A stretch of 64,000 nt of DNA from an uncultured virus (IMG/VR IMGVR_UViG_2911013136_000002) (lineage: Duplodnaviria > Heunggongvirae > Uroviricota > Caudoviricetes), in IMG/VR virus record IMGVR_UViG_2911013136_000002; one strand, given 5' to 3'. The position numbers and the translations under genes are program-made. Positions 35,634-55,328 of the stretch are shown here, in pieces. Position 1 is the stretch's first letter, and each line of letters begins with the position of its first letter. The notes under the pieces are model-generated. The model did no database searches. It was not told the origin of the DNA and saw only the letters and a list, made by a program, of their open reading frames with translations.

Positions 35634-35647
35634 AAAGGTGTGATTCG

Positions 35648-36815: not shown

Positions 36816-36941
36816 AGAGCCTACTCAACATTACAGAGTAGGCTTTTTTGTAATTTTTTTAAACTAAAAATAGCCCCTTTTCTTTAAAAAATGTATAAGT
36901 TATTTTAATATTTGAAGAAAAATGGATAAGAGGGGGATTTT

Positions 36942-37838
36942 ATGGGTACAAAGAAAATTAACTTTGATTATTTTAAAGTATATGGACGTTGGTTTGAAAG
37001 AAATGAAAATGTTGAAAGGGAAGGATTATTTGACCTTAGTCCTATATTAGAACAGGCAGAAAATATTGAAATACCTGATCGAACATATTCATTTTATAAT
37101 GATAGTGCTAGACTTCAAAATTTAGGTAAGAGAGGGGATTTATGGGCCCTACATTTTGTTCGAATGAGAAAAGATGATTCTGTTTCAATAACAACTGAAG
37201 ATGGTGATTTAGATTTTCTGGAATTAGAAGAAGGTCAATATTTAGGTGAAGAAGTTTCGGCGCTTTACGATCCTAGTAACCAAGTAATAATGATTCAAAG
37301 GAACCGATACAGCTTGTCACCATCAGGAATTGCTCATTATTTTAACCAAGCATATAATGAGCCAGGACTACATATATTTCTGAAACCAATTGTTAGTCCG
37401 GAAGCGCTTGACCGAATTGATAGCGATGATCTATTTAGAGGAATAGAAATAAGTATTGCAGATTTTAAAAATGCTACAGATGATGTGAAAAAAACTTTAA
37501 CAGGACTAACCCGAAACATTGAAGAAACACCAGACCCAGTGAATGTTAAGATTATTTTAAGCTTAGATAGAAAGTCTAAAAAAAGTAGTAGTATAAAAGG
37601 AATCTATGATTTATTAAATAAATTTTCAAAAGATGAGAATGTAAAAAAGATGGAAATTAGAAAAAAAGATGATGAGGAATCTCCAGTTGAAAAATTTGAT
37701 TTAATCGAGGATCGTTTAGGAGACCATGCCTACTTTAAAATAGACAGAGAAAACCCTTTGGAACATGATAAGTTAATAAACAAAATGATTGAATTATATC
37801 GAGGCCGCAAGGAATATATAGACCAAATAACCATTTAA
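36942..37838 (+). CDS. AT-rich moron protein (possibly DUF6731-like)
   Basis: 298 aa; YLGEEVSALYD...MIQRNRYSLSPSG. Family assignment is from memory. Confidence 0.6.
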   Translation: MGTKKINFDYFKVYGRWFERNENVEREGLFDLSPILEQAENIEIPDRTYSFYNDSARLQNLGKRGDLWALHFVRMRKDDSVSITTEDGDLDFLELEEGQYLGEEVSALYDPSNQVIMIQRNRYSLSPSGIAHYFNQAYNEPGLHIFLKPIVSPEALDRIDSDDLFRGIEISIADFKNATDDVKKTLTGLTRNIEETPDPVNVKIILSLDRKSKKSSSIKGIYDLLNKFSKDENVKKMEIRKKDDEESPVEKFDLIEDRLGDHAYFKIDRENPLEHDKLINKMIELYRGRKEYIDQITI

Positions 37839-37854
37839 TAAAGGTCGTGATAAA

Positions 37855-38379
37855 ATGAGGATTTTCGAGAGGATTTATCCAATTGGAATTTCAATTATAT
37901 TTGCCATTATTATTTATAATCAACATATTACATTTAATATCATCCCGAAAATTGAACCAGTACTTAATTCTGTTGTAACTGTAAGCTCAATTGTAATCGG
38001 CTTTTTAGCAGCAATGGTGTCGATTCTAATTGCTATCACTAATAGCAAAGTGATGAAACGTATTAGAGAAGGTAAAGCTGAACATTTATTAACATGTTAT
38101 ATTCGAGAAGCAATTATTTCTGGAATATTATTAGCTTTAGGTTCGACAATCGCATATTTATTTGTAGATTACGATGGTAAGAAAGCAGATCTAATATTTT
38201 CAGTTTGGTTTTTTATGGTTATTCATTTTTTACTCTCATCATTCAGAATATTAAATATAATGCTGAATATTCTTTCCACGATTCCTAAAGAATATAAAGA
38301 ACATGAAAAAAAAGATTCAAAGATGGTTTATACACCAAAAAAAGAAAATGCTTTTAAAAAAGATAACACCACTTCTTGA
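37855..38379 (+). CDS. Multi-TM membrane protein, partner of 36942
   Basis: About 4 hydrophobic helices; SIVIGFLAAMVSIL. Confidence 0.75.
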   Translation: MRIFERIYPIGISIIFAIIIYNQHITFNIIPKIEPVLNSVVTVSSIVIGFLAAMVSILIAITNSKVMKRIREGKAEHLLTCYIREAIISGILLALGSTIAYLFVDYDGKKADLIFSVWFFMVIHFLLSSFRILNIMLNILSTIPKEYKEHEKKDSKMVYTPKKENAFKKDNTTS

Positions 38380-38539
38380 AAATTACCCAAACCTACTAGT
38401 GAGCCCTTTTATTTCAGATTCATCAGCGGTGTACAAGGAATAGGATGTTCTAAACAACTGCCTATCTTAGTTGGTAGGCTCTTTTTTATGCAATCCACAT
38501 TGGAATTATACCCTGCCTTCTGGCAGGGCTTTTTTATTT

Positions 38540-39158
38540 GGCTCTGTTAAAGATAATGTTGATATTTGAACCTTTCCGATGTGTAGTGCTTATTTAACTA
38601 ACGGTCGGAAAGTTGAACATTGTTTAATATTGTCGTAATATTCAGATTATAATTAACCATAACAGTATTTAAACTTCAGGGGGATTTATATGCCTTTAAA
38701 AGTAGGAGATATAATTACGTTTGAACGGACTTTTACAGTAAGGGATGTTGAATTATTTACAGAGATTTCAGGCGATAAAGGGATTCACCATATTACTCCA
38801 GATGAACAGGGGAGACTTGTAGTTCAAGGATTACTAACGGCGACTCTGCCAACAAAAGTAGGTGGAGATTATAACGTACTGGCTCGTACGATGAATTTTG
38901 AGTTTTTAAGACCTGTATTTACGGGGGATACAATAATTTGTGAAGTGAAAATTGAAAAATACGAAAGGCAAGAAAATAATAGAACAGCTATTATTGCATC
39001 CTTTTTATGTAAAAATCAGAATGAAAAAGTAGTATTAAAAGGCAATTTTTCAGGTGTAATACTTTAAATTCTAACTGGAGCGTTAGAATGGGAAACCCTT
39101 AGAATATTGGGTTTCCCTAAATTATATCTGATTATCAACATTAAAATTTAACAGAGCG
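38540..39158. mobile_element. Inverted-repeat-bounded cassette carrying the hotdog gene
   Basis: gctctgttaaagataatgttgat at 38541 and atcaacattaaaatttaacagagc ending 39157; ttttattt on both flanks. Confidence 0.55.
38690..39067 (+). CDS. MaoC/hotdog-fold dehydratase-like protein
   Basis: FTEISGDKGIHH, VVQGLL, FLRPVFTGD. Confidence 0.85.
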   Translation: MPLKVGDIITFERTFTVRDVELFTEISGDKGIHHITPDEQGRLVVQGLLTATLPTKVGGDYNVLARTMNFEFLRPVFTGDTIICEVKIEKYERQENNRTAIIASFLCKNQNEKVVLKGNFSGVIL

Positions 39159-39199
39159 TTTTATTTTTTTGTGGAAATATTTATCATGGAGGTGACTAT

Positions 39200-39420
39200 G
39201 TGTTCGAAATCGTTGGCAGATTGCGTTGTCCCATTTGTTCGGAGGCGGTTCAGCCAGACGAAAAAGTGTTTCTCGACATTATCAACACTGTGTCATTCAT
39301 CAGAAATGTTACTACAAATCTCCGCGACGTAAACTCCCAATCAAAGATGAAGGTCCATTTCAGAAAATGCTTCTAAAATATCCCTTTTTCAACAAGGACG
39401 ATGAAGATGATTCCATATGA
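39200..39420 (+). pseudogene. Frameshifted small Zn-binding phage gene
   Basis: VFEIVGRLRCPICSE...INT continues as VIHQKCYY in another frame (extra tg near 39290). Confidence 0.55.
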
Positions 39421-39444
39421 AAAGCCCTTCTCATCGAGAGGGGC

Positions 39445-39921
39445 TTAAATACCTAACAATTGTTTTTTCTTCGCTTCAAATTCTTCTTCTGTTAAAATTC
39501 CTGCCTCTTTTAATTCGGCTAATTTTTTAATTTCATCAGCTGCACTTAATGATGATTTTGCTTCAGATTTTTTCCCAACGTTTTCTTTAACATGCTCAAT
39601 AAATTTATCTACTTCCCCTTGATTAATCCACTTCATCTTGACCTTATTTCCTGAAGCGAAAAATGAGATAGAACGCCCTAACATGCCTTTACTAATCTCA
39701 AACGAGCTAATATTAGCATAGGGGAATACTTCCAAATCGTAACCAAACATCTTTTTACCATAAAACAAAATACGGCGATCTGTTGCCAGAAATACTCCAT
39801 TTCTGAGAGTATCTTTTCCCATGATTTTTGTCTCATAAGCACCTAAAACACTCGCGACAATAGGTTCATTTGGCTCCAAATATTGAGACGCTTCTTTAAC
39901 CAACTTATCAATTTTCGCCAT
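39445..39921 (-). CDS. Bacterial PH domain + SHOCT protein
   Basis: GVFLATDRRILFY; ADEIKKLAELKEAGILTEEEFEAKKKQLL. Confidence 0.88.
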   Translation of the reverse strand: MAKIDKLVKEASQYLEPNEPIVASVLGAYETKIMGKDTLRNGVFLATDRRILFYGKKMFGYDLEVFPYANISSFEISKGMLGRSISFFASGNKVKMKWINQGEVDKFIEHVKENVGKKSEAKSSLSAADEIKKLAELKEAGILTEEEFEAKKKQLLGI

Positions 39922-40120
39922 TTTCGTGTTCCTCCTCAATTAATTCTTCCATTGTAACTCCTAAAAGCTTGGACAGTTGATATGCCTTAATCAAATCTGG
40001 CTGCGTTTTATTATTTACCCAGCTTGAAAAGGTCTGTATAGACACACCGCACTGTTTAGCAAGTGCTTTATGTTTTAGTCCTTTTTCCGCAGCCCAATAG
40101 GCAATTCTGTTCCGATACAT
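39908..40120 (-). CDS. XRE HTH regulator
   Basis: LAKQCGVSIQTFSSWVNNKTQP; sigma-H-like promoter upstream (AGGAATT-N14-GAAT). Confidence 0.85.
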   Translation of the reverse strand: MYRNRIAYWAAEKGLKHKALAKQCGVSIQTFSSWVNNKTQPDLIKAYQLSKLLGVTMEELIEEEHENGEN

Positions 40121-40350
40121 ATGTATTCACCTACTTAAGTATTACCCATTCGACAAGAATGGACAAATTCCTGTTCAAGAATTCTGGAATAAAAATTAAA
40201 GAAAATTAGAAGGACAAGATATATTGGACAATCTCTCCCGAATACTCTTTACCATACCAAACAGAATTCCACGTAGCATACCTGAATTCCTTCAAATCAG
40301 CCAATCATGCAAGATTTCAGAGAAAAAGGGAATGAGGGGAGGAACGTCAG

Positions 40351-40734
40351 TTGGAACATGAAGGGGGATTGCGGAGCATCTTCCAGGCTTACGCTGAATA
40401 TCGAAAACGACATCGGAAAATGAACGAGTTTGAATATCTTGATCGCACACCATACTTGCATAGTTCAGACTATCTTCGTGAATTGTATCGCGGCGCGGAC
40501 ACGAAGGAGAAGAAACAGAAGCTATTCGACTACATCCAGCGTTTTGAAGTGAATGATAAAGAGTTCAAAGGATATTATTCGCTTTATGAACGGATCGGCA
40601 GGGAGCTGGGGCACATCGAGGATGACAAAGAAGAATACATTCAGATTCCCAAGTCATTGATCGCGGAGTACGCAAGACAGATGATGGATGACGAGGATTT
40701 TGTGAAATACAACATGAGGAGGCAGCGAAAATGA
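40351..40734 (+). CDS. Hypothetical protein, first ORF of the FtsK module
   Basis: RBS ggagg; coupled to the next ORF. Confidence 0.55.
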   Translation: MEHEGGLRSIFQAYAEYRKRHRKMNEFEYLDRTPYLHSSDYLRELYRGADTKEKKQKLFDYIQRFEVNDKEFKGYYSLYERIGRELGHIEDDKEEYIQIPKSLIAEYARQMMDDEDFVKYNMRRQRK

Positions 40735-40901
40735 TCGAAGTGATCGGCGGAGGGCTTGTTCTGATCGGAATAGCTTACGCGGAGAACAAAGGATGGGTAG
40801 ACAAGGAAAGCGTGTCTTTCGTGCTCAATGTGGGAATGCAAGCGGGAATATGCGCGAGCTTGTTCTACTTCTTACACAAGTTGTCTATTTTGTTCTTGTG
40901 A
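40731..40901 (+). CDS. Small two-TM protein (not in ORF track)
   Basis: MIEVIGGGLVLIGIAYAE...LFYFLHKLSILFL, 56 aa; ATGA overlap. Confidence 0.6.
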   Translation: MIEVIGGGLVLIGIAYAENKGWVDKESVSFVLNVGMQAGICASLFYFLHKLSILFL

Positions 40902-40998
40902 CATGTTCCCGCGCATATTCCCCTGCAGACGGAGAGTGGGTCCATTTGAAACCCTATTACCATGCGTATGAACGAGCTTTCGGGAATATTCCCGATGA

Positions 40999-42201
40999 TT
41001 GGGATATTATCTCTTTTTTCTGGAGGTGTTTTTCTTGTTCGAATTGTTAGCGATCCCTGTCCTTGCTGGTTCAGCAGCAATCTTGTCCGGAGTTAAGAAC
41101 AAGCAGAAAGAGAAACGAGTAATTGATACCGTATTTCGTAATTTGAAAGTCGGAGCGGTCGAGGGGAAGGAGTTTGTCTATCCGAAACTTGTTGCAACAG
41201 AACAAAAGGACTACTGTGTGCGTTATGTGTATCGCGTACCGTTAGGGCTACCTAAAAAAGCGTTGGAACCAGTCGAAGAAATACTTGCTGCCACTCTAGA
41301 TCGCCCAGTTGAAGTCACGTTCAAGAAGTGGTTATGCATCGACATTTTCAACAACGACATTCCGGCAAAAGTGCCGTATAGCGAAGCTCCAGACATGAAA
41401 GGCTGGGTTGTGCCACTTGGCTGCAATGAGAAAGGTTGGCACTTCCACGACTTCGACAAAACTCCGCATTGTACCATAGCGGGAACCACACGATTCGGAA
41501 AAACAGTCATGCTAAAAAACATGATGACCTACCTCATCGAGCATCACCCAGAAGATGTAGAATTCCTCATACTCGACATGAAAGGTGGTCTAGAATTTGG
41601 TCGATATCGAAACCTCAAACAAGTCATCGAAGTGTCCAGCAATCCATTCGAAGCCTTTGAAGCACTGCGCATTGTCCAAACATTCATGGAGCAGCGCATG
41701 AGGGAGTTTTGCCAAAATGGATGGTCTAACATTGTTGATACACCGATCAAGAAGCGATTGTTCGTCATTGTTGACGAAGGAGCGCAGCTCGCGCCAGACA
41801 AATTCATGATAAAAGAACAAAGAGATATGCTTGCCGCATGTCAACATATTCTTGGAGAAGTTGCACGTATCAGCGGCGCTCTTGGACTCCGACTCATCTT
41901 CTGTACACAATATCCTACTAGCGACACGTTACCTCGGCAGATCAAACAAAATGCAGACCTCAAAATCACCTATCGGCTTCCTGCTGGCTACGCATCGATG
42001 GTTGCAATCGACGACTACGGAGCAGAAGAGCTTCCATCGGATATTCCAGGCCGCGCAATCGTGAAAACGCATGAATTACGCATTGTACAAACACCTTTTA
42101 TTTCCGATGACGAAATGATGAAAAGGCTGGGGGTGTACCGCGTTGCTAAAGTTAGAAAAACTCAGCGAACGGCAAATGAAGATACTATATGCTTTGAATA
42201 A
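40999..42201 (+). CDS. FtsK/SpoIIIE-family ATPase
   Basis: GTTRFGKT Walker A, LDMKGGLEF, VIVDEGAQL, CTQYP; N-terminal TM. True start may be slightly downstream. Confidence 0.9.
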   Translation: MGYYLFFLEVFFLFELLAIPVLAGSAAILSGVKNKQKEKRVIDTVFRNLKVGAVEGKEFVYPKLVATEQKDYCVRYVYRVPLGLPKKALEPVEEILAATLDRPVEVTFKKWLCIDIFNNDIPAKVPYSEAPDMKGWVVPLGCNEKGWHFHDFDKTPHCTIAGTTRFGKTVMLKNMMTYLIEHHPEDVEFLILDMKGGLEFGRYRNLKQVIEVSSNPFEAFEALRIVQTFMEQRMREFCQNGWSNIVDTPIKKRLFVIVDEGAQLAPDKFMIKEQRDMLAACQHILGEVARISGALGLRLIFCTQYPTSDTLPRQIKQNADLKITYRLPAGYASMVAIDDYGAEELPSDIPGRAIVKTHELRIVQTPFISDDEMMKRLGVYRVAKVRKTQRTANEDTICFE

Positions 42202-42751
42202 CCTAGGTGCATTAAGCCGTTCGCAAGTTCAATATATGTTCGACCTGGGAAGCAAACGTAATGCGAATCGGGTGCTGCAGTCCATACGCGATTACGTGAA
42301 CCGCAAAGCGTTAAAAGAATATGTATATTACTTAAACAAAAAAGGCGCAGAAATGATAGGTGGCCAAGTGATTGTGACAGGAAACAGCCCACTGCAGCAT
42401 ATTGTCATGCGCAACGACATCTATATCTTCTACCACTATCCGCAGGACTGGAAGCCGGAAGCGAAAACAAGGTGGAAAGAAGGTGGCAAGGAATACAGCG
42501 TTGTATCTGACGCGCGGTTCACGTATCATGGGCAGATATACTTCTTGGAAGTCGATATTCAGCAAAAGATGGCTGAGAACAAACGGAAAGTCGAGAAGTA
42601 CGCGTATTTGTTCCGATTCATACAATGCCAGCAGATCGGGGAACCAATTTTGCTGTGGTACACAGTATCTCAAGAGCGGAAAAAACGCCTAGAGAAATGG
42701 TGTAGGCAACATGAAATTCCGCATGAGGTGTTGTGTAAGCAGGATTTTTGA
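42143..42751 (+). CDS. Replication-relaxation family protein
   Basis: wHTH, HIVMRND, SDARF, FLEVD. Confidence 0.82.
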   Translation: MLKLEKLSERQMKILYALNNLGALSRSQVQYMFDLGSKRNANRVLQSIRDYVNRKALKEYVYYLNKKGAEMIGGQVIVTGNSPLQHIVMRNDIYIFYHYPQDWKPEAKTRWKEGGKEYSVVSDARFTYHGQIYFLEVDIQQKMAENKRKVEKYAYLFRFIQCQQIGEPILLWYTVSQERKKRLEKWCRQHEIPHEVLCKQDF

Positions 42752-42934
42752 GGAGAATAAAAAGCAGAGGCAATCTTATTAAGACCTAAATTTAAAAAGC
42801 TAAAAAAAATAAAGGAGAGCACATATTAGTCATGTATAATATGTGTTCTCCTTTTATAAAGCCGAGTTAGTTGAAAAAGGATCATTTGAGTAAAAGAAAA
42901 CTCTACCCAAATATTGATAAATTTTATTAGTTAG

Positions 42935-44068
42935 TTAGGAATTAGATTTCGAAAAAAACCATTTCATCATTGAGGGAGTAACAATCGTTGTAACCAGAAT
43001 CACAACAACGATGACAGCAAACATATCTTGCGTTAGCAGTTTAGATTCTAAACCAATAGTTGCAATAATTAGTGCTACTTCCCCCCTGGACACCATTGCT
43101 GAACCTATTCCCAGTGAGCTATTCCAATTGAATCCAGCCAACTTTGCTCCAACAGATGCACCAATTAATTTTGTTAGTATAGCTATAATACTTAATAAAA
43201 CAATTAGACCTAAATTTTGAGTAATACCAGAAAATTGGGCAGTGACACCAATAGAAGTAAAGAATACAGGAACAAAGATAGAATAACTAATTGTTTCAAC
43301 CTTCTCAAATATCTCATGTTTGAAGTTTGTTACACTGATAGCCACACCTGCTATATATGCTCCGATTATTGCCGCGACACCTGTGTATTCTGCTAGGTAT
43401 GCATAAACAAAACAGATAATTAGAGCAGACGAAATTACAGTTTCTGTTACTTTTAATGATGAAAACTTATTCAAAAACCAAGGAACTACTTTCCAACCAA
43501 CCAAAATGGCTCCTGCGAAAAATAATATTTTTTTTAAAATAACCGTGGTTAAATTAACATCTCTACCAACAAAACTCATTAAGAATGCCAAAGCAATAAT
43601 TCCTACCACATCATCGATAACAGCTGCTCCTAAGATAGCGGCTCCTTCGCGGCTATTTAATTGATCCATCTCTTTAAGTGCCTGAACAGAAATACTTACA
43701 CTGGTAGCCGAAAGCAATAGCCCTAAAAACAAGGATTGCATCGTGGTAAGATTCAACATTATTCCGACAAAGTAGCCCAAAACAACTGGTACGATAATGC
43801 CACCAAAACCTACGAAAGTGGAGGCTTTCCCAGTTTGTTTAAATTCATTAATATCTGTTTCCAACCCAGCAATAAACATCAGCAAAATAACACCGATTTG
43901 ACTTAATTCTGCCAAGGTTTCTGTCTCGTTCACTAATCCTAAAACCGATGGTCCTAGTACAATTCCAATCAGGAGTTTACCAAGAACTGAAGGCTGTCCC
44001 AATCTAACACTTAGGCTCCCAGCTATTTTGGCAGCAACTAAAATGATGGCTAACTGAAGTATTAACAC
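42935..44068 (-). CDS. Cation:proton antiporter (CPA2, NapA/GerN-like)
   Basis: GQPSVLG, FIAGLETD, ATSVSI, AVIDD, SRGEVAL. Confidence 0.92.
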   Translation of the reverse strand: MLILQLAIILVAAKIAGSLSVRLGQPSVLGKLLIGIVLGPSVLGLVNETETLAELSQIGVILLMFIAGLETDINEFKQTGKASTFVGFGGIIVPVVLGYFVGIMLNLTTMQSLFLGLLLSATSVSISVQALKEMDQLNSREGAAILGAAVIDDVVGIIALAFLMSFVGRDVNLTTVILKKILFFAGAILVGWKVVPWFLNKFSSLKVTETVISSALIICFVYAYLAEYTGVAAIIGAYIAGVAISVTNFKHEIFEKVETISYSIFVPVFFTSIGVTAQFSGITQNLGLIVLLSIIAILTKLIGASVGAKLAGFNWNSSLGIGSAMVSRGEVALIIATIGLESKLLTQDMFAVIVVVILVTTIVTPSMMKWFFSKSNS

Positions 44069-44112
44069 CTAAAAATCCCCACCTTTCATTAATATTATTT
44101 ATGATTTTCTTC

Positions 44113-44230
44113 AAATAAAAAGAGCCTGTCACTAAGGGACATAGTTATCCCTTGGTGACAGACTCCTCCTCAAATACAATATTATTAACAATTTTATTGA
44201 AATTATATCGTACTTTAGATAAGATTTCAA
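44113..44230 (-). promoter_or_regulatory. Sigma-A promoter and leader terminator of the antiporter
   Basis: TTGAAA-N17-TATAAT (44230-44202); 18-bp hairpin 44122-44165 plus a U tract before the RBS. Confidence 0.7.
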
Positions 44231-44567
44231 TATTCATTACTTTTCCGCTGTATGAACTAAACTATCCTTTCCTTCTCAGCTAAAAAAGATTATTGCATAT
44301 TCATATCCGGCAATTTGTTTCACCGGAACGAAAAGAAAAGCTGGGTGCTTGGTGCAGGGAGTATGTTGTTAAATATGAAGTGTTATGCAAGTAATAGTGA
44401 GTAAAAAAGAAGGTGGAGTAAGATTCCCACCTTCTTAACCTCTAATGCAAAATCGAAAATAATTTTGCACGGATTTTGCACGATATAAAAGGAAATATCC
44501 ATTTATCCATTGAAATATCAATCGTTTTTGACACATGGTTATTATCCTGCCGAGGGGGGTGGCTTGA

Positions 44568-44807
44568 TTGAGCAAAGTATGGTGGTCCATGCAGGATCTC
44601 AAAGAGCGTACTGGATACAGCGAGGACTGGTTGAAAGAAAATATCCTTCTTCATCCTCGCTACCGACAAATGCTTGATTTAGAAAACGGCGGTTTTGTGT
44701 ACTACCCTGAGAAGAAGGGTGAACGCTGGTGCTTCATCGCTTCGCGGATGGAAGAATTCCTGGAAAAGTATTTTCGCGACATATTCATGAAAAAGAACAC
44801 AAAATAA
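44568..44807 (+). CDS. DUF771-like excisionase-type HTH protein
   Basis: WWSMQDLKERTGYSEDWLKENILLHP...GGFVYYP...W. Confidence 0.75.
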   Translation: MSKVWWSMQDLKERTGYSEDWLKENILLHPRYRQMLDLENGGFVYYPEKKGERWCFIASRMEEFLEKYFRDIFMKKNTK

Positions 44808-45011
44808 AATTACGTGACGTCGTGGAAAATGAAGATCCTCGAAAGGTGTGCTCAACTTCGGTCAGACCTCCGTGGTCTAAAAATCAACACTCAAATTTAA
44901 CAGAGAGTTTGTTAAAATAAAGAAGGCCGGACTCATACTCCGGCCTTCTTTATTACCCATTAATCATGCGATTTATAAAGTAGTTGTAGAAATTGTATTT
45001 ATGTTACTCTA

Positions 45012-45221
45012 CCTACCGGATCGGGAAAAACGACGACTTTATATGCTTTGCTGCGGATTTGTCAGGAAAAGTGGCATCGCAATGTCATCACCTTGGAAGA
45101 TCCGGTCGAAAAGCGGATTGACAATCTATTGCAAGTGCAGATTAACGAAAAAGCGGGAATTACGTATGCGGTTGGCTTGAAAGCCGCGTTGCGCCATGAT
45201 CCGGATGTGATTATGGTATGA
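45012..45221 (+). pseudogene. comGA: Internal fragment of competence pilus ATPase gene comGA, between the two prophages
   Basis: PTGSGKTTTLYALL...NVITLEDPVE...QVQINEKAGITYAVGLKAALRHDPDVIMV*: Walker A, Asp box and the start of Walker B of the PulE/ComGA family. Confidence 0.92.
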
Positions 45222-45282
45222 ATTGCAGAAATGTTGATTTATCAATGATTTTATGGCTATTGCATATCTATTTACCCACATT

Positions 45283-46419
45283 TTACCCACCAAACGATGA
45301 ATCTAAATATTTCTCTAATTTCAATACGGCTTCGTCCTCTTGTTTGCGGGAGACATGCAAATAAACGTCAGCAGTCATGTTTATTTTAGTGTGTCCAAGC
45401 CGGTCGCTGACTGTTTTGATATCCACTCCACTTTCCAATAGCATAACCGCGTGGGTGTGGCGGAGTGCGTGCGGACCGAATTTATTAAGATTTGCTTTTT
45501 CAGCCATATTCTCTAAAATTGAATTTATTTTCCACTCATGATACGGAACGCTGTACCGATCAACCAACACATAATTGTTAAACTGGTATCTTCCGAACTG
45601 TAATTTGTTTTTTGCTTGCCACAATTGAAATTTTTTTAATTCTTTCGTGAGCTTATTGTCCATAGAAATCACTCGGTTACTTTTCTTCGTTTTTGGTGGG
45701 AAGGTTCCGAGGTGGTTTCTATTTTTGTTTATGGCCATTAATTTATTGTCAAAATCTATGTCATCCCACGTAAGAGCTAATAACTCGCCTTTTCGTAACC
45801 CCGTACGCAGCAAAATAAAAACAGCCATGTATTCGTCAAATTCGAATGTTTTTGCCACCATCAAAAGTTTTTGTACTTCTTCTTTGGTAAGGAATTTTAT
45901 TTTCTCTTCCTCATTGCCTTTGGAAATAGAGATGCCTTGAAATTTATTCCGATCGATGATTCCATGCTCCACTGCTTTGTTTATGATCGTCATAAACAGT
46001 CCATGTATGCCTTTTACGGTACTTTCTTTTAATGTTTCTAACTCTTTATTGATAAACGCTTGGTACTGCGCTCTCGTTAGTTTTTGTAACTTGTAGTTAC
46101 CTAACGCAGGGATGATATGATTATACAATCGTGTTTTTCGTGTCTTGCGTGTGGTTTCTCGCCACTGTCCCTCATACAGTTCTAAATACTGTTCAATCCA
46201 ATCCTTTACGGTAATGTCGCTGTTTTTTACTACGTCGACATCACCAACGAACAATTTCTTCTCCACTTCCGCAGCAGCTAATTCTGCTTCTTTTTTTGAA
46301 GCAAAACCGCGTTTCGATTTTTCTTTTATTTTCCCCGTTACCGGATCCGTGTACTTTATACGATATTCATACATGTACTTTTTGGAGTTTTTGTTTTTGT
46401 ACTTTCTGATACTAGCCAT
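45283..46419 (-). CDS. Tyrosine integrase
   Basis: N-terminal arm-binding domain (KRGFASKKEA), TGLRKGE, HALRHTHA, RLGH, VYLH. Confidence 0.95.
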   Translation of the reverse strand: MASIRKYKNKNSKKYMYEYRIKYTDPVTGKIKEKSKRGFASKKEAELAAAEVEKKLFVGDVDVVKNSDITVKDWIEQYLELYEGQWRETTRKTRKTRLYNHIIPALGNYKLQKLTRAQYQAFINKELETLKESTVKGIHGLFMTIINKAVEHGIIDRNKFQGISISKGNEEEKIKFLTKEEVQKLLMVAKTFEFDEYMAVFILLRTGLRKGELLALTWDDIDFDNKLMAINKNRNHLGTFPPKTKKSNRVISMDNKLTKELKKFQLWQAKNKLQFGRYQFNNYVLVDRYSVPYHEWKINSILENMAEKANLNKFGPHALRHTHAVMLLESGVDIKTVSDRLGHTKINMTADVYLHVSRKQEDEAVLKLEKYLDSSFGG

Positions 46420-46517
46420 GATCATCCCCTCCAACGAATAAATTAAATTTTTGATACCAAAATTTCTTATTCATCTCCTCTCTAAACATTACAACGTTGC
46501 GATTATATAGGTTGATG

Positions 46518-47003
46518 TTACAAATATTTCATGTGTTGGACGCGGTTTTTTATTTGCTCTAATCGCTCCTCGCATAACTCTGGGGTTACCTTGAACATAT
46601 TGGCCATATGCTCAATTATGTGTGGCTCGTCCCAGTCAATGAACTTCAACATGTGAAAGGGAATAGCAGCATATTTCGTAAAATGATTTGCATCCCGTTC
46701 CTGTAGCTCACGAAAAGCCTCTGGCATCATGCTCTGGACTCCGACATGACGGAGAATGTGACATAGCTCATGGAAGAAGGCTTCTCGCTTTTCCTCTTTC
46801 GATAGTCGTGAGTCGACGACAATACAGCGAAAGCGGCCCACAACTTGATGTGTTGATGGAAAAGGTTTTTCACGCAAGAAAATGTTCATCGTTTGAGCAA
46901 TAAACGATGGATCGATTTGATAAGGATAAAAAATGTTTAGTCGTGTATAAAACTTGGTCACCCAGTCTTCCAACGCGGTCGTGTAGTAGCGGCGTAGCTC
47001 CAT
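46518..47003 (-). CDS. ImmA/IrrE-family metalloprotease (anti-repressor)
   Basis: FFHELCHILRH, QERDAN. Confidence 0.88.
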   Translation of the reverse strand: MELRRYYTTALEDWVTKFYTRLNIFYPYQIDPSFIAQTMNIFLREKPFPSTHQVVGRFRCIVVDSRLSKEEKREAFFHELCHILRHVGVQSMMPEAFRELQERDANHFTKYAAIPFHMLKFIDWDEPHIIEHMANMFKVTPELCEERLEQIKNRVQHMKYL

Positions 47004-47024
47004 AATTGTCCCCCTCCTAAGGAT

Positions 47025-47053
47025 ATTATAGGAACAAATGTTTGGTTTAGCAA
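47025..47053 (-). promoter_or_regulatory. immA promoter with a LexA (SOS) box in the spacer
   Basis: TTGCTA-N17-TATAAT; ggaacaaatgtttg at 47031-47044 resembles GAAC-N4-GTTC. Confidence 0.65.
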
Positions 47054-47294
47054 TAAAAAGAAAAAATCCTCTTAGTTGGAAGAGCTTTAATTTTTGTTAC
47101 GACAAATATGATAATGGGGGACGTTTTGCACTTGACCTATTTACTTACAGAAAACCGTGATAAATCAAGTTCCATTTTAGGGGGGAGTGTTGGTATGGTT
47201 TTTCGTGAAATTTAAGTAAGTATTGTTTGGAGTAACAAAAATATATATGTGATTAAATTAAAAAAAGAGCCTGCTAACGGGCTCTTAGAAAAAA

Positions 47295-47669
47295 TTATTC
47301 AATGTAACAAAACGACTGAGGTGGATGAAAGTTTGTAAATAATTCTACTGGAGAAAGGGGTTTTTCGTATTTTTTAGTTTCACGTATTTTAATTGCATAG
47401 CCTCTTTCTTTGTTTTGGAAATAAGATTTAAAACGTTCGTAGCTTATTCCAGAAGCTTGATGAGTTTTGTTCCATAAGTCCTCAATTGACTCATTTAAAA
47501 TGCAATCAATTTTAAGCTCACCAACAATTTTCCCAACCGGTTTGGTACTATAGACAACAATAGTATCGATATCTGTTTTTTTGAAGATATTTTTGCGATA
47601 TTCATATTTTTTTTCTCCACTGAAAATCTTATCGACGAACTCTGGTTTGATTGATAATAAAACTTTCAT
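47295..47669 (-). CDS. ASCH-domain protein
   Basis: LLSIKPEFVDKIFSGEKKYEYRK...PPQSFCY. Confidence 0.88.
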   Translation of the reverse strand: MKVLLSIKPEFVDKIFSGEKKYEYRKNIFKKTDIDTIVVYSTKPVGKIVGELKIDCILNESIEDLWNKTHQASGISYERFKSYFQNKERGYAIKIRETKKYEKPLSPVELFTNFHPPQSFCYIE

Positions 47670-48705
47670 TGACACCACCTAATTTAACAATTCTTTCGAA
47701 CTGTTGTTCTGTAAGCCTCATTATACCCCAATAAGCTTTTCTGTCAAGTCCACATAGTTCAATTAAATCTTTGCGAATTAGTCTTTTACTCAATGCCAAA
47801 TTGTAAGTCATTTTTAACACATATAGCTTTTTCTCATTGAAAAAGCTTGTTAACTCATTTTGATTAAAAACACTGTATTTCGAACAGTACTCTAAGAAAT
47901 CATCTAAAGAATCAAAATCATTTTTAGTTTTTAATTCTTTTAAAACGCATATTGAAGTCGCTACTGATCTATATTCTGCACGTTTTGGTATATCTGTGGT
48001 TCTATAGATGACAATTGGATCACCTGGTTTGATATCTAATACACCATCCATCAAACAAATATAGACTTTCTCTATACTATTGGTATGTGAAATATCTTTT
48101 ATCAAATCATAGCCGGATTCATTATGTAAAATCGAATCAGGGAAGAGCCTTGTATGATACTTAGGATAGATACTAAGTAAATAAGGAGTGGTATTACCAA
48201 TCGATACTAATGGATAATCTTTTAAAATATCGCCGGTGAACTTGTTTAAATCTTTTAACATTACTGACTCTGTGCCGTTACTAGTTGTTTTCCAACCAAC
48301 ATGTTCAAAACCGTACTTCTTTAGCAATTCTATAAGAGATTTGTGTTTTTCAAAAACAGTTACATATAATTCTTTTATATCATTAACAACAGCGTGATCT
48401 AGAGCTTTTTTAATAAATCGTTCTCCTAATCTTGTTCCATGTGGATTGATTTTTAGAGTGCCAATTTTAATACGTTTGTTTTTTGGAAGTGGGGGAGTAA
48501 TGTCTGTTAAAGCTTCATCCTCTATTTTTAAGTATAGAAACGCTTGAATCCCATTTTCGTCTTCATAGTAATAAGCTTTGTCATTGGCTTTTTTTCTGAA
48601 CCATTCTTCAAATTCTTTATAATCTTCTTTAAGTGAGTCGAAGAATGGATCAGATAGATTAATGTTTTTGAAAAAATCATATTTAAAGAAATCGCTTTTA
48701 CCCAT
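47629..48705 (-). CDS. GNAT acetyltransferase fused to an ASCH/PUA-like domain
   Basis: KIGTLKINPHGTRLGERFI...LLKKYGF; C-terminal LLSIYPKYH...PGDPIVIYRT. Confidence 0.75.
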   Translation of the reverse strand: MGKSDFFKYDFFKNINLSDPFFDSLKEDYKEFEEWFRKKANDKAYYYEDENGIQAFLYLKIEDEALTDITPPLPKNKRIKIGTLKINPHGTRLGERFIKKALDHAVVNDIKELYVTVFEKHKSLIELLKKYGFEHVGWKTTSNGTESVMLKDLNKFTGDILKDYPLVSIGNTTPYLLSIYPKYHTRLFPDSILHNESGYDLIKDISHTNSIEKVYICLMDGVLDIKPGDPIVIYRTTDIPKRAEYRSVATSICVLKELKTKNDFDSLDDFLEYCSKYSVFNQNELTSFFNEKKLYVLKMTYNLALSKRLIRKDLIELCGLDRKAYWGIMRLTEQQFERIVKLGGVNESFIINQTRVRR

Positions 48706-48724
48706 GTAATTTATCCCCCTTCTA

Positions 48725-49267
48725 TTAATCTATTTTTTGAATACTAAACAAATTATCAAGATAATTATGTATTGATTCATCTGGATTATTTACATCATAA
48801 ACAAAATAAGGCACTGATAATTTCTGACTAACGAATTTGGAATAATTTAACTCTATATTTTGCATCTTTTGAAGCAGTAAGATGTCATATTTTACTTTAT
48901 CTCTCTGAATAAGACGAGAATAGATTCTTTCGGGATCATCTTTTAAAACAATAATGGCTTGTGGTGAAATATCTAAAAATGTATCAAATGGAATTTGAGT
49001 TACATCTTTTTCTGGTGTTAATAAGCAAAAATGTCCATCTAAGAAAAATGGCTTATCATTGAAAGTGATAGTGTTCAACGCATTAATTAGAATATTTTGA
49101 TTGGATTGAACATCTTCAACTTCTTTTTTATCGAATTGTTGTTTCTTGAATTCTGAAATTAAAGAACTACAAGAAAAATGTTCTGTATTGTATTTTTGTT
49201 TTAACTGATTACAAAAATAACTTTTGCCTACGCCGTGTATTCCACCGACAAAAATAATCTTTCGCAC
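48725..49267 (-). CDS. P-loop nucleotide (NMP) kinase-like protein
   Basis: IFVGGIHGVGKS, FLDGHF, IYSRLIQRD lid motif. Confidence 0.8.
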   Translation of the reverse strand: MRKIIFVGGIHGVGKSYFCNQLKQKYNTEHFSCSSLISEFKKQQFDKKEVEDVQSNQNILINALNTITFNDKPFFLDGHFCLLTPEKDVTQIPFDTFLDISPQAIIVLKDDPERIYSRLIQRDKVKYDILLLQKMQNIELNYSKFVSQKLSVPYFVYDVNNPDESIHNYLDNLFSIQKID

Positions 49268-49539
49268 AAAAATCTCCCCTTATTAAGAGTGTGCAAAGTT
49301 ATTTCATATTCTGTGATTTTATTCTTCGAGCGCTGCTGAGGTTTAAATAATTTGTTTTATTTCCCTTAAGCAGTATTCGATTGATCCTCAATACTATCCC
49401 TCCCATAAAATAATAAAGGCATCTAAAATAAACAAATGCGCCTGTTTATCTTAGATGCCTTATCCTAGATGCATTAATCTTTTTTATTTTTCTCTTTCAG
49501 AAGTAATGATTATTACTTTAATAAAGGTCCTCTTGACAT

Positions 49540-50898
49540 CTATCTTTCACATGCATAACCATCTTTGTCTCTATCCATCTTTGGCTGATAAGCTGGATGG
49601 CTCGATGGAACTCCGTTTGGATAAACTTTTCTCAGTTCTGTACAGTTTGCAAAATACTCATTTCCTCCACTAGATGCAGGTGTGCTGGTATTGTTTGTAT
49701 TACTGTTCGAATCGCTATTTGAACTGCGACTTGAGCTACTATGATTTGAGCTACTATTTGAACTGCTGCTTTTAGCTGATGATGACGATGATGAAGCAGT
49801 GCTGCTGTTAGATTGTTTTGGATCTAAATCGCCCTTTGTGGTTCCATATTCACCGTATGCCCACAATCCTTTATTTGCCTCGCGTGCTTCACGAGCGAAC
49901 TTTCTGAAGTAATCAGCATATTTTACATCAGGCGGGTACGTAGATGGTTCTGCGTATCCGTTTAAGACAAGATCGGCATTAAACATTTTAGAGCGAATTT
50001 CTTTTTCACTCATATCATCATTCGGAACTTGCAGCCAAACGATTCTCAATAACCGGCCATATCTGTCGGTTTCAGAAACATCTTTTTGCAGCCAAACTGT
50101 TTTTCCAGCTAGTTTCGAAGATGTATAGTTACTTGCTTCTTTTCCATATTGTTCATGTCTAGTTGTTGATTCTGGCGTATTCACACCGATGAGACGAACC
50201 TTTCTTCCGTCGGTAAGTTCGAAAGTGTCACCATCGACGATTCTCGCAACAGTTACAGCTTCTAAACGAAATTTTTTCGCAAGGTTTTCTTGTTGTTTCT
50301 TAGCAGCTTCTTGCTTTTCTTGTTCTTCTTTTTGCGCTTTTTGTTTTTCTTCATCATTATTTACAGATGCAGTAGCTGCCGGTACAACTTTGCTATCATT
50401 GTTTTTATTTTCTTCACTAGCTTCTTTACTGGTTTCTTGTTTACTAACGGTTTTTTCAGATTTTGCTGTTTCTATTTGAGGTTGAGGCGAGATCAATAAA
50501 AAGATAATAGATAATACCAACGAAGCAGCTGTAATACCGGAGAATCTTTTCCACATTACATTTTTCCGGATAAGCATAACTATTGTCGTAATTAAGAAGT
50601 ATACGAATGAACAAAGTAATAAACTGGCTAGAGTATAGAGTGGTTCCTTAAAAGAGAACCAAAACAGTGCAAGGAAAAATCCATTCACTATAGCAAAAAC
50701 AGGCCAATACAGTGTAAGGTTGTATTTTGTTCTTGCAAATGAAAAATAAAATCCAGCAATAACAGCAACAAGTCCTAATACTCCTAGGATGTTCAGAACA
50801 GTCCATTTCAAGATTTGATAAATGACAGAAATAATAATAATCAACAACAGTAATGAACCAATCGTACCTTTACTCTTATTCCTTGCCAATTTCTTCAC
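49540..50898 (-). CDS. Membrane-anchored thermonuclease (SNase) with Excalibur domain
   Basis: About 5 TM segments; IVDGDT, VRLIGVNTPE, DRYGRLL; C-terminal NCTELR...DRDKDGYACE. Confidence 0.92.
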   Translation of the reverse strand: MKKLARNKSKGTIGSLLLLIIIISVIYQILKWTVLNILGVLGLVAVIAGFYFSFARTKYNLTLYWPVFAIVNGFFLALFWFSFKEPLYTLASLLLCSFVYFLITTIVMLIRKNVMWKRFSGITAASLVLSIIFLLISPQPQIETAKSEKTVSKQETSKEASEENKNNDSKVVPAATASVNNDEEKQKAQKEEQEKQEAAKKQQENLAKKFRLEAVTVARIVDGDTFELTDGRKVRLIGVNTPESTTRHEQYGKEASNYTSSKLAGKTVWLQKDVSETDRYGRLLRIVWLQVPNDDMSEKEIRSKMFNADLVLNGYAEPSTYPPDVKYADYFRKFAREAREANKGLWAYGEYGTTKGDLDPKQSNSSTASSSSSSAKSSSSNSSSNHSSSSRSSNSDSNSNTNNTSTPASSGGNEYFANCTELRKVYPNGVPSSHPAYQPKMDRDKDGYACER

Positions 50899-51128
50899 CT
50901 TCTTCCGAGTATTATATATCTAGTAAAATCTAACTACAAAAATAGTAAAAAAATTTATTATAATATTCAAGATAAATTTACGTTTTGTTTAAATAAAAAG
51001 ATAAAAAGACACCGAAGACTTAATATTTAGCCCTCGGTGTTTTCATCAACAATTGCTGCATTAATTTAGTTTTTGTTTTCTGGTCATATCCCATTTTTTC
51101 TATAAAAAATAAAGACACCAGAACTAAA

Positions 51129-51572
51129 TCAATCTTCGGTGTCTTCACTTGCTGCTTTATTCTTTTCTTTTGCCTTATGAACAACCCACTCGAAGTGTTT
51201 TATGATCTCCTCAATCTCTTCCTCCGATAGGCTTTTCCACTTCTCGATATCGAAGAAGCCCATTTGTTCAATGCCGTATTTTTTGATGAGCTGATTAATT
51301 TTTGCAAGCGTATTTAATTCCTCTGGAATATCATCCGTTTCTGGCGGATTTGGATTATCCGTGCGACCGAGGAGGTAGTCAGCACTAACTTCGAATAAAT
51401 CGGCTAATTTATTTACCGTGTCTAATTGAGGTTGTTTAGTGCCCCGTTCATACGCTGTATATGTTGTTCGTGCTACCCCAACAAGGTCGGCGACATATTC
51501 TTGAGTCCACTTTGGGTTTTCTTGTTTTTTCTTCTCGCGTAAATGTTTTAACCTTTCTCCAAAGGTTTTCAT
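51129..51572 (-). CDS. ImmR-like XRE repressor
   Basis: FGERLKHLR...TQEYVADLVGV...YERG...DYLLGRT. Confidence 0.9.
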   Translation of the reverse strand: MKTFGERLKHLREKKKQENPKWTQEYVADLVGVARTTYTAYERGTKQPQLDTVNKLADLFEVSADYLLGRTDNPNPPETDDIPEELNTLAKINQLIKKYGIEQMGFFDIEKWKSLSEEEIEEIIKHFEWVVHKAKEKNKAASEDTED

Positions 51573-51613
51573 ACTATCACCACAATCTACCTAATTATAC
51601 TAATTATTATAAA

Positions 51614-51726
51614 GTTACCTACAGAAACTTTAAAGCGGAATTAAAAAATGTTCCTAAAAGGATAAAAAAGTGTTGACGTGTTACTATAAGGGACATATAA
51701 TAAAAACAAAAGTTACTAAAAGGAAC
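51614..51726. promoter_or_regulatory. Prophage 2 operators GTTMC-N5-GGAAC and rightward promoter
   Basis: Copies at 51614, 51650, 51680, 51712 and 51936; TTGACG-N17-TATAAT at 51673-51701. Confidence 0.7.
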
Positions 51727-51744
51727 AAAAGGTGGTGAAATTAA

Positions 51745-51973
51745 TTGAGAATATGGCTTAAAGATTTACGTGAAAGAAAAGGGATGACTTCAAAGTCAAG
51801 TTGCTGAAAACTGTGAAATCTCAAGAAGTTATTACACTCATATTGAAAATGGGACAAAAACACCAACTGTTAAGGTTGCTAAGAAGATTGCTTCAGTTCT
51901 CGATTTTAGCTGGACAATTTTTTTTAAAGATGAATGTTCCTTTAAGGAACGTGATGGAACAGCATCAGCCTAA
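51745..51973 (+). pseudogene. Frameshifted cro-like HTH gene
   Basis: MRIWLKDLRERKGMT, an extra T near 51790, then QSQVAENCEISRSYYTHIENGTKTP. Confidence 0.8.
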
Positions 51974-52012
51974 GGAGGCTAACAGAGATATTTGTTAGGC
52001 AGGTGAAACACC

Positions 52013-52282
52013 ATGTTGACCGTACAATTGGATGAGAAGCAGATAGAAAAACTGTTCCTAGACGAACTCAAAAAACGGCTCGATCAGTTAGAACATCGCC
52101 ACACATTTTGGGATATGAAAGAGCTCTGTCGCCAAACATGCATGAGCGAGAACAACATAAAGGAAAAATTCTTTTATGATCCGCGTTTCCCAAAGTACAA
52201 AATCGGCGGTAAATGGTATTTCCCAGCAAAAGAATGTGAGGAGTTTTTAATTGCATGGATTAAAGAGCAACCGACTGCTTAA
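52013..52282 (+). CDS. Excisionase-like HTH protein
   Basis: FWDMKELCRQT...FPKYKIGGKWYF. Confidence 0.7.
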   Translation: MLTVQLDEKQIEKLFLDELKKRLDQLEHRHTFWDMKELCRQTCMSENNIKEKFFYDPRFPKYKIGGKWYFPAKECEEFLIAWIKEQPTA

Positions 52283-52349
52283 GTAAGCTTCTCTATCCAT
52301 AGCATATCATGCAAATTTGTAAAGATTGGTAGAAAGGAGACAAGTGAAG

Positions 52350-52871
52350 ATGAAATGTGGTAGAGCCGCCGACGCGGTCAAAGCCGCACGGAAAGCGGCG
52401 AAAATGACTCAGCAGCAGCTATCCTTTGAAATCTATGAATCTCGCGAATCTGTGTCGCATCAAGAAAACGGCCGATACAGGGTGCAGCCGAATATCTCGA
52501 AATACTTTGCAGAAAAGCATAACAATCCGTGGGTTGCACTCGAGGCAGCGGCAGAATACACCGGATGGGGACCTGTGAAACTGGATGGAGAAATGGTCGA
52601 TCTCCATCGGGCGAGTGTAGCGATGAAAACGCGTGAAGAACTCACCGAAGCACTTGAAGCGATCGAAAGCGTTTGTGTCGCCAATCATCCTCGATCCATA
52701 CGAGAGTTTGACAAACAGCGTCTCGAGGAAGCTGTCTTACAGGCAATCGATGCCATTGTCGCACTCACTCAATACGTTGCTGTCATTTGCATCGAATACG
52801 GCTTTTCTTGGTTCAAGATGTGGCAAAAGCATCGTGCGAAACTTCAAGCGAAAGGATTCATCCGAAAATGA
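52350..52871 (+). CDS. XRE HTH phage protein
   Basis: ARKAAKMTQQQL...SHQENGR. Confidence 0.78.
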   Translation: MKCGRAADAVKAARKAAKMTQQQLSFEIYESRESVSHQENGRYRVQPNISKYFAEKHNNPWVALEAAAEYTGWGPVKLDGEMVDLHRASVAMKTREELTEALEAIESVCVANHPRSIREFDKQRLEEAVLQAIDAIVALTQYVAVICIEYGFSWFKMWQKHRAKLQAKGFIRK

Positions 52872-52888
52872 AGAAAGGGGAAAGCAAA

Positions 52889-53228
52889 ATGATGAAACTG
52901 CCAAATTTAGCGGAGATGACGGATATTGAAGCGATTCATTAGTACACCAGCGAGTTTTTGCGACTCTCGTGTGAAAGGCAGCTGAATAGTGAATACGGCA
53001 AAGCGCTTTTAGAGTGGAAAAAACAATTAAATGCACGCCTGGAGAAGTCGAAAAAGGAGTGGTGGTAATGTACGCAGTACTTTCGGCAAGCCGTCTATGA
53101 AAGCATCGGAAATTCGGAAAATCTGTGCGGAACTACGAAGCAATCCAACACTGTTGACGGCGTTAGAGTTAGCAGCGAAAGAAAAACTTTATCAGCAATT
53201 CGTACTAAAAGAAAAAGCAGTAAGCTGA
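52889..53228 (+). pseudogene. Two damaged small genes: 52889-53068 (internal TAG) and 53068-53228 (1-bp deletion)
   Basis: IEAIH*YTSEF; ASRL/MKASE out of frame relative to homologue 3931-4131. Confidence 0.6.
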
Positions 53229-53301
53229 TCGCTCACTGCCATTGTTAAAACCAGCCCGAAATTTAAGTTCATTGTATCATCATTTGCAGAACAAGGCAAG
53301 T

Positions 53302-53398
53302 TCGGCAAGCTAATGCTTGTCGACGGCAGTGCAAGCCGGCGGGTGTGTCCCCAGCCTGCCAGCATGCTTGCACTCCGGTCGATGTGCATTAGCACATT
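53302..53398 (+). ncRNA. Putative structured RNA, homologue of 4165-4262
   Basis: gctaatgc/gcattagc and agtgcaagc/gcttgcact stems. Confidence 0.6.
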
Positions 53399-53510
53399 TG
53401 ATCCAGATTCGAAAGGAGGAATCAAACATAGCGAGACAACACATTTCTGTACATGTAGACATGTAGGAACTAGACTATGCATCCGCAATATAGTGAGAGG
53501 ATGGTAACAA

Positions 53511-53858
53511 GTGACCAGGGAGGAGAAAAAACAGATTCGCTTGCAAATTACTAAGCTGCTGGATACGCATTGTTCTTCATGCAGAGAGCGTAATGAAAGC
53601 AGAAACAGCTTATGTCTAACGACTTGTCCCATCGGCAAGCAAATGCGTCAGTTGTCATCCATGCTAGAGCAGGACCATATTTCAGAAGGAACAAAGAGAA
53701 CAGGAAAATGGACCAACGAAGAAGAGCTTTACTTATGGCACCATCAACACATTTTGACGATTAATCAGCTGGCAGAAGAATTGAATCGAGATAAGAAATC
53801 TATCTACAACAAGCTTTGGCGGTTGAAAAAGAAAGGCGGTATCCAACACGTTAGCTAG
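53511..53858 (+). CDS. Zinc-finger + Myb-like HTH phage protein
   Basis: TREEKKQIRLQI, CSSC...CLTTCPIG, WTNEEE. Confidence 0.75.
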   Translation: MTREEKKQIRLQITKLLDTHCSSCRERNESRNSLCLTTCPIGKQMRQLSSMLEQDHISEGTKRTGKWTNEEELYLWHHQHILTINQLAEELNRDKKSIYNKLWRLKKKGGIQHVS

Positions 53859-55313: not shown

Positions 55314-55328
55314 TAAGCGGAAGGAGGA

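Follow-up and report, generated by a model that had tools for sequence, protein, structure and literature searches.

Introduction

ComGA, the product of the first gene of the comG operon, is the pilus ATPase needed for the competence pilus. Here we describe a comGA gene that is broken off at its Walker A motif and again at its Walker B motif, with a serine-integrase prophage on one side and a tyrosine-integrase prophage on the other. The gene piece lies within a stretch of 64,000 nucleotides, hereafter the window, from an uncultured member of the Caudoviricetes (IMG/VR record IMGVR_UViG_2911013136_000002). Single prophages in comGA have been published before; what is new here is the stacked pair and the use of three motif sites within the gene.

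Prophage insertions in comGA were described in staphylococci, where the ∼44-kb prophage SpST71A resides in comGA of Staphylococcus pseudintermedius ST71 (Brooks et al. 2020, PMC7029219). A comGA prophage of this species is also found in PMC8297860, and an insertion in the comG locus is known in Macrococcus (PMC6008420). As in the window, SpST71A splits the comGA frame, is proposed to abolish competence and recurs in a lineage (PMC7029219). However, SpST71A is one prophage that leaves two gene pieces in another host family, whereas the window holds two prophages with unrelated integrases in one comGA. The present case also goes beyond SpST71A in that its att sites can be assigned to Walker A and Walker B, and that the His box is used in relatives.

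Other systems share one or another property with this locus. In Listeria monocytogenes, the comK prophage (phi10403S/A118) occupies a gene of the competence pathway that is restored by precise excision; there, non-lytic excision was shown experimentally and serves the host, whereas for the window regulated excision is hypothetical and two excisions would be required (PMC7397523). In Bacillus subtilis, SPbeta in spsM and skin in sigK resemble prophage 1 of the window in that a serine-integrase prophage splits a gene that excision rebuilds, but these excisions are developmentally programmed in the mother cell and concern a sporulation target, while in the window no such control is visible and the target is a competence gene (PMC4191935). 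Pneumococcal prophages at comYC, ssbB and other sites also target the transformation machinery, for which an escape from transformational deletion was proposed (PMC12637031, PMC12378983); in contrast to these cases, the gene here is the comGA ATPase and the hosts are thermophilic and mesophilic Bacillaceae. The nif genes of heterocyst-forming cyanobacteria can carry several elements with their own recombinases, all of which must excise (PMC11249958, PMC4874684). The nif elements, however, are mostly degenerate non-phage elements of terminally differentiated cells, whereas both elements in the window look like full temperate phages.

The conflict over chromosomal curing, including a shut-off of competence that protects prophages, is an already published concept (PMC12637031, PMC12378983). 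Table 2 of the 2025 review gives comGA as a target only for S. pseudintermedius (PMC12378983), and in the accessible parts of this review and of PMC12637031 two elements stacked in one gene are not described. In the literature outside subscription journals, we found no comGA insertion reported in Geobacillus, Parageobacillus or other Bacillaceae, and no report of two prophages in one comGA or of three motif sites.

A comGA fragment between two prophages

The frame between the two prophages (Table 1) translates, over positions 45012-45218, into a 69-aa product that runs from PTGSGKT to DPDVIMV and ends at a stop codon. This product matches the Pfam family T2SSE (E 7e-26, profile positions 150-217 of 370), and its top match in NCBIfam is the ComGA equivalog NF041000 (E 2.5e-31, 108.7 bits, positions 136-204 of 267), which is preferred over the GspE, PilB and PilT models. 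The score is below the full-length cut-off of 300 because the piece covers 69 aa only; the intact ComGA of the metagenome locus L096, its 98%-identical counterpart, reaches 339 bits against the same cut-off. In a gap-free DNA alignment, window positions 45011-45217 agree with the L096 comGA at 203 of 207 bases (98%), and none of the four differences changes an amino acid. Downstream of the intact comGA in L096 come comGB, GC, GD, GE and GF equivalogs (NCBIfam); in the strain studied here, the genes downstream of comGA lie beyond prophage 2, outside the window. At both the left and the right end of the piece the similarity to intact comGA breaks off abruptly, with certain homology extending from 45015 through 45217.

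The nearest protein in the large database (P0001), annotated as a 213-aa 'hypothetical protein' of Parageobacillus caldoxylosilyticus B4119, is 99% identical to the piece. Its alignment reveals the whole contiguous N-terminus of ComGA followed by the window-type piece, with the same end point (DPDVIML). Next come intact 354-aa ComGA proteins, at 93-96% identity to the piece. When compared with genome contigs, the piece is 72% identical to the best among the matches listed, and viral contigs scanned with ComGA gave no match. The Pfam and NCBIfam matches, the alignment to L096 and the integrase matches detailed below uphold the central claim of a preliminary description of this DNA, namely that a serine-integrase prophage interrupts comGA at Walker A and a tyrosine-integrase prophage interrupts it at Walker B.

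We consider it probable that two temperate phages integrated, independently and site-specifically, into the single comGA of a thermophilic strain resembling Parageobacillus caldoxylosilyticus, and that competence is kept off as a result. According to this model, prophage 1 would have used its large serine integrase with the Walker A codons (G-P-T-G) as attB, and prophage 2 a lambda-type tyrosine integrase with arm sites, whose 17-bp core corresponds to the Walker B codons (P-D-V-I-M-V). Each integrase would act on a phage site resembling one of the conserved stretches of comGA, so that the gene would come to lie in three parts. Comparison with other genomes supports the reading of both junctions as genuine att sites of integrase lineages that hit the same comGA positions elsewhere.

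Integration at Walker A

The serine integrase at the left end of the window contains the Pfam domains Resolvase (PF00239, 1.1e-41), Recombinase (PF07508, 8.5e-17) and Zn_ribbon_recom (PF13408, 3.5e-6), and so has the architecture of a large serine recombinase, with catalytic, recombinase and zinc-ribbon parts within ∼450-500 aa. At the opposite end of prophage 1, attR starts with a 16-nt half-site of the phage, TTGTATTTATGTTACT (44993-45008), after which come a 9-nt spacer resembling comGA (45009-45017) and the dinucleotide GG (45018-45019), which is the likely point of crossover. Position 45014 is a T in the window, where the five close intact comGA genes compared all have G, which fits a phage-derived spacer mimicking the host sequence.

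In a genome sample of 48 species from the family that holds the closest relatives, this integrase has no close homologue. Among 401 genomes of the order, the closest serine integrase is 67% identical and belongs to genome G330. There, the integrase stop codon is 25 bp from a comGA piece of residues 1-148, in convergent orientation, and the remaining comGA (residues 139-344) is found on a separate contig. The same arrangement would be expected at the left end of prophage 1. Compared with the right end of prophage 1, the attR of G330 has an identical half-site (16/16) at the same 9-nt distance from the GG, and its attL contains a 12/16 inverted copy of the half-site that ends 3 nt before the integrase stop. 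The half-site and spacing common to G330 and the window tie the integrase at the left end of the window to a junction 45 kb away.

The attL of prophage 1 lies outside the window and, by analogy with G330, is predicted ∼25-30 bp to the left of base 1. The preliminary description had also placed attL just left of base 1, and this position fits the G330 layout, with its 25 bp from the integrase stop, but the evidence then offered for it gives no support. That evidence was a 9/11 inverted match between 44991-45001 and bases 1-11, taken as weak evidence for a split attP. The match does exist, but carries no weight, as the two 60-nt ends contain four such matches versus 0.67 after shuffling (p ∼0.055). 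Bases 1-11 encode the conserved EFY-stop terminus of the integrase, and from the G330 layout the partner half-site would be expected left of base 1.

Four other serine-integrase homologues that we checked (45-49% identity) come from genomes with intact comGA. In IMG/VR, the provirus L191 has an integrase 93% identical to that of the window. The records of this and further proviruses with related integrases (L191-L193, L200, L202) hold no comGA and are cut at the integrase stop, so that they yield no attL. In the phage collection, no DNA match was found to the right end of prophage 1, nor did an exact 22-nt search for it in viral contigs return any. The sequencing runs that match the window each do so in at most 0.32 of sampled words, and the right junction of prophage 1 (44792-45069) falls outside the coverage of the four runs examined.

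Integration at Walker B

The integrase of prophage 2 has the three domains of the lambda type, arm-binding (Arm-DNA-bind_4, PF14657), core-binding (Phage_int_SAM_3, PF14659/PF22022) and catalytic (Phage_integrase, PF00589, 5.4e-31). Its site is best understood by comparison with two relatives. In genome G255, a 5' piece of comGA (residues 1-214) is directly followed by an integrase 92% identical to that of the window, the 3' piece being on another contig; attL and attR of G255 share an identical 17-bp core that is homologous to window positions 45201-45217, CCGGATGTGATTATGGT. The viral metagenome contig L201, with an integrase 90% identical, has the unintegrated attP form, in which an arm 82% identical to the attR arm of G255 is followed by the core and then by the window-type arm. 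TTT(T/C)ACCCAC repeats occur on both arms of L201, three on one and two on the other. A duplicated core with arm sites on both arms, as expected of a lambda-type att system, is thus seen in G255 and L201, of which the window contains the attL half only.

The preliminary description had noted that the arm repeat is present twice, and this held: exact copies of TTTACCCAC in the window are two only, starting at 45271 and 45282. The pair is conserved in the same arm of both relatives (attL of G255 and attP of L201), with 2-3 more copies in the opposite arm. In agreement with a further claim of that description, that two unrelated integrases target two conserved motifs of comGA, the att sites of G330 and G255 fall at the same positions as those of the window.

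The comGA-integrase junction was also found in Logan contigs from another isolate (X5, a 152-kb contig) and from a soil metagenome (X3), and tyrosine integrases 90-93% identical to that of the window occur in IMG/VR contigs. Among the cultured phages of the phage collection, none has an integrase more than 60% identical to either type of the window; that of Aeribacillus phage AP45 reaches 48%, in a phage that does not have the FtsK/Replic_Relax module found at the end of prophage 1. Two further contigs, a 5.4-kb contig of isolate X10 that starts at 45202, where the core has its edge, and a 309-base contig (X1) in which 236 unlike letters adjoin 45202-45274, may represent attP or another context and were given no weight.

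Recurrent insertion into comGA

In the family sample, comGA is full-length in 45 of the 48 species and split in the remaining three. Two of the split genes (G241, G256) involve a third type of integrase, a serine integrase 39-40% identical to that of the window, which adjoins a comGA piece ending in the His box. In both genomes (loci L187 and L188 in G241, L189 and L190 in G256) the insertion is at the TGHL codons, where attL and attR have a 12-bp sequence in common that is flanked by 10-nt inverted half-sites.

A search with the first 144 residues of ComGA for proteins of 79-252 aa (E ≤ 1e-30) gave 43 hits, 19 of which were fetched. Sixteen of these 19 short ComGA proteins, from many Bacillaceae and mostly on long contigs, stop right after 'FTGPT' in Walker A, followed by 0-16 unrelated residues; one stops after 'DPDVIMV' in Walker B and two stop in the His box. 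Cases at Walker B besides the window are G255, P0001 and P0274, and those at the His box are G241, G256, P0032 and P0258. The same gene positions have therefore been hit by site-specific integrases in independent genomes, and the clustering of truncations at Walker A, Walker B and the His box indicates that comGA is a recurrent landing site with three positions. Five of the proteins truncated at Walker A (P0242, P0253, P0259, P0255 and P0264), which come from different genera, have similar foreign tails (..HVI, ..NVI, ..SVI, ..NVS). This similarity suggests a single phage att arm that is widespread and does not belong to the lineage in the window.

At the level of genomes, a conflict between transformation and integrated mobile elements is documented mainly by prophages lying in competence genes, to which the present case adds two points. 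First, related phages bring three different integrases, each of which copies another conserved ATPase motif of comGA, in both thermophilic and mesophilic Bacillaceae. Such convergence argues that comGA is selected as a target rather than hit by accident. Second, two elements can be stacked in one gene, which makes reversion doubly unlikely. Insertions of this kind may explain the poor natural transformation of some biotechnologically interesting Parageobacillus and Geobacillus strains. In addition, the two new integrase/att pairs from thermophiles, with examples of attB, attP, attL and attR, are candidate tools.

Predicted consequences for competence and alternative explanations

Since comGA comes first in the operon, either insertion alone would remove the pilus ATPase and cut comGB-GF off from the promoter. 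A lysogen would therefore be expected to have no competence pilus and to be non-transformable. Site-specific recombination is conservative for both the serine and the tyrosine type. As the middle piece has kept its register, precise excision of both prophages would rebuild comGA; the piece in the window is collinear with the intact gene and free of gaps, and the far pieces would lie outside the window. Both prophages contain lytic modules along with immunity genes: prophage 1 encodes an S24-type repressor and prophage 2 an ImmA-like peptidase. S24-type repressors and ImmA-like peptidases are classes known to respond to DNA damage. Excision would thus be expected to accompany phage induction rather than to act as a switch controlled by the host.

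With regard to the choice of target, the insertions compared here show that the phages hit the best-conserved stretches of a gene that is itself widely conserved, and, following the published work on curing, a prophage would gain by blocking the transformation that could remove it. A stable shut-off that protects the prophages from curing is in our view a better reading than a regulated switch with AND logic.

Several points weigh against the model of two independent integrations with a stable shut-off. The 5' and 3' pieces of comGA, which we would expect at the far ends of the two prophages, are outside the window in this strain, as is the right end of prophage 2, and a separate search for short ComGA proteins, with the full-length query, returned no fragment more than 90% identical that might be the N- or C-terminal piece of this strain. 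The missing 5' piece is probably a matter of how the record was cut, the window starting at a stop codon like trimmed provirus records. A second, intact comGA may exist in the genome; relatives show one comGA plus pilB and pilT. The undecayed middle piece, with none of its four changes non-synonymous, fits a recent insertion, and fits as well a continued selection through occasional reassembly of the gene. Finally, the antirepressors of a common type (64% identical) and a shared intergenic element make it possible that both prophages are induced together.

A rival reading is a regulated two-key switch, a form of active lysogeny in which a defined condition such as stationary phase, sporulation or stress leads both prophages to excise precisely without killing the cell, comGA is rebuilt and competence is turned on, with later re-integration or loss of the prophages. 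In favour of it, neither integrase is truncated, the att systems are conservative with an undecayed middle piece in register, a viral contig (L201) carries an attP of the tyrosine type, and the 64%-identical antirepressors together with the shared ∼140-nt element could couple induction. There are also precedents, in comK of Listeria (PMC7397523), SPbeta in spsM (PMC4191935) and the multi-element nif genes of Calothrix (PMC11249958). Nevertheless, we regard such a switch as unlikely, as both prophages retain lytic genes and SOS-type immunity, their repressors are unrelated beyond the helix-turn-helix (HTH), and single insertions at the same sites in many taxa are explained without any switch. 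Moreover, no recombination directionality factor or host-controlled promoter was identified, the DUF771 gene (44568-44804) being a candidate for such a factor, and excision in this strain is a prediction. One may speculate further that at least three integrase lineages (two serine, one tyrosine), borne by mosaic relatives of one phage group, have converged on the three-position landing pad, and that the two stacked here, with their shared antirepressor family and late-region regulatory element, form a two-key gate held by the phages themselves, in which one signal might excise both prophages and bring competence back. If so, cells that survive or are cured would regain competence after a single induction signal, but we find this speculation improbable as well.

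It is also doubtful that the locus is a dead relic, in which the gene could no longer be rebuilt after deletion or rearrangement of its 5' or 3' piece, or in which one or both prophages are defective. The comGA flanks and the right-hand part of prophage 2 are outside the window, and prophage 1 has 2.2 kb of extra cargo (antiporter, DUF771) between its usual last module and attR, both of which would be compatible with decay. However, the piece is 98% identical to the intact gene with synonymous changes only, the att junctions are exact, with conserved half-site, core and arm repeats, and both integrases and all visible modules are intact. Least credible of all is an artefact, that is, a mis-join in assembly or prophage prediction or a comGA scrap left in one composite phage by imprecise excision: the window does start exactly at the integrase stop codon, as IMG/VR provirus records trimmed at gene boundaries do, but such an error would not stop exactly at a half-site of the G330 type, nor exactly at the core common to G255 and L201, and the right junction was found independently in other data sets (X5, X3).

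Organisation and cargo of the two prophages

The features of the locus and the gene content of both prophages are given in Table 1. A related provirus record of 39.6 kb is rated 100% complete, from which the right end of prophage 2 is expected ∼21 kb past the window.

Table 1. Positions of the comGA piece, the att sites, the integrases and the prophage modules in the window
Feature	Position	Strand	Description
comGA middle piece	45011..45217	+	∼residues 145-213 of 354, Walker A to Walker B
attR of prophage 1	44993..45019	+	
Terminator-like hairpin	44916..44954	+	perfect 16-nt, inverted repeat I5, 100% complementary; just inside the right end of prophage 1
Large serine recombinase (integrase) of prophage 1	1..1410	-	469 aa; stop codon at window bases 1-3
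att core in attL of prophage 2	45201..45217	+	CCGGATGTGATTATGGT, 17 bp; encodes PDVIMV of Walker B
P' arm of prophage 2	45218..45290	+	direct arm-type repeats TTTACCCAC at 45271-45279 and 45282-45290
Tyrosine integrase of prophage 2	45283..46434	-	383 aa; with arm-binding domain
Prophage 1	1..45017		∼45 kb, complete-looking (Pfam scan)
Prophage 1, early genes			integrase, S24/HTH repressor (1488-2156), antirepressor, YqaJ/RecT, replication genes
Prophage 1, late genes			terminase, portal, capsid, tape measure, amidase (packaging, head, tail, lysis)
Prophage 1, right-end genes			FtsK-like and Replic_Relax (40999-42751), CPA2 antiporter (42935-44068, -), DUF771 (44568-44804)
Prophage 2, left 18.8 kb	45218..64000		continues past the window end (Pfam, PADLOC)
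Prophage 2, genes			integrase, ImmA-like M78 peptidase, cargo island (ASCH/PDC-M11, kinase-like, nuclease), HTH regulators
Prophage 2, further genes			DnaD-like replication gene, antirepressor, DinB-like, HEPN; HNH near the window end

Prophage 1 shares its FtsK-like/Replic_Relax module with the serine-type element of G241 (73%) and the tyrosine-type prophage of G255 (80%), in both of which no other module comes between it and attR. This common end module indicates that these phages are related mosaics with distinct integration modules. We considered a separate third element at 39-45 kb (FtsK, Replic_Relax, DUF771) and rejected it, since the comGA-inserted prophages of G241 and G255 end in this module too.

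The two prophages of the window are themselves linked by their Bro-N/KilAC antirepressors (2883-3659 in prophage 1, 57563-58237 in prophage 2), which are 64% identical over 191 residues; beyond the HTH, their repressors are unrelated. An intergenic element of ∼140 nt is found upstream of late genes at 13840-13993 and 15810-15930 in prophage 1 and at 61312-61435 in prophage 2, and consists of a promoter-like sequence and a GC-rich hairpin. Rfam has no family in the window, and none for this element. Co-induction, or cross-induction, of both prophages is possible.

The CPA2 cation:proton antiporter gene is located between the usual last module and attR of prophage 1. A ∼92% similar copy occurs on a 1.6-kb contig of the X10 isolate with unlike flanks, and the antiporter is thus also present in another context. 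In prophage 2, a cargo island within 47066 to ∼51000 contains the candidate defence pair PDC-M11A/PDC-M11B (47295-48705, minus strand; E 4.5e-152 and 3.1e-51), which has an SNase/Excalibur nuclease and a kinase-like gene as neighbours. Two isolates have related prophages that part from the window exactly at 47065/47066.

Within prophage 1, a 216-nt tandem duplication (94% identical, 14625-15056) lies inside an open reading frame (14517-15752) with beta-helix-like matches. Directly after the lysis gene of prophage 1, at 36942-38376, a DUF6731 gene (E 3e-68) lies next to a gene for 174 aa with a weak match to PDC-M67B, and these two neighbours may form another cargo or defence pair.

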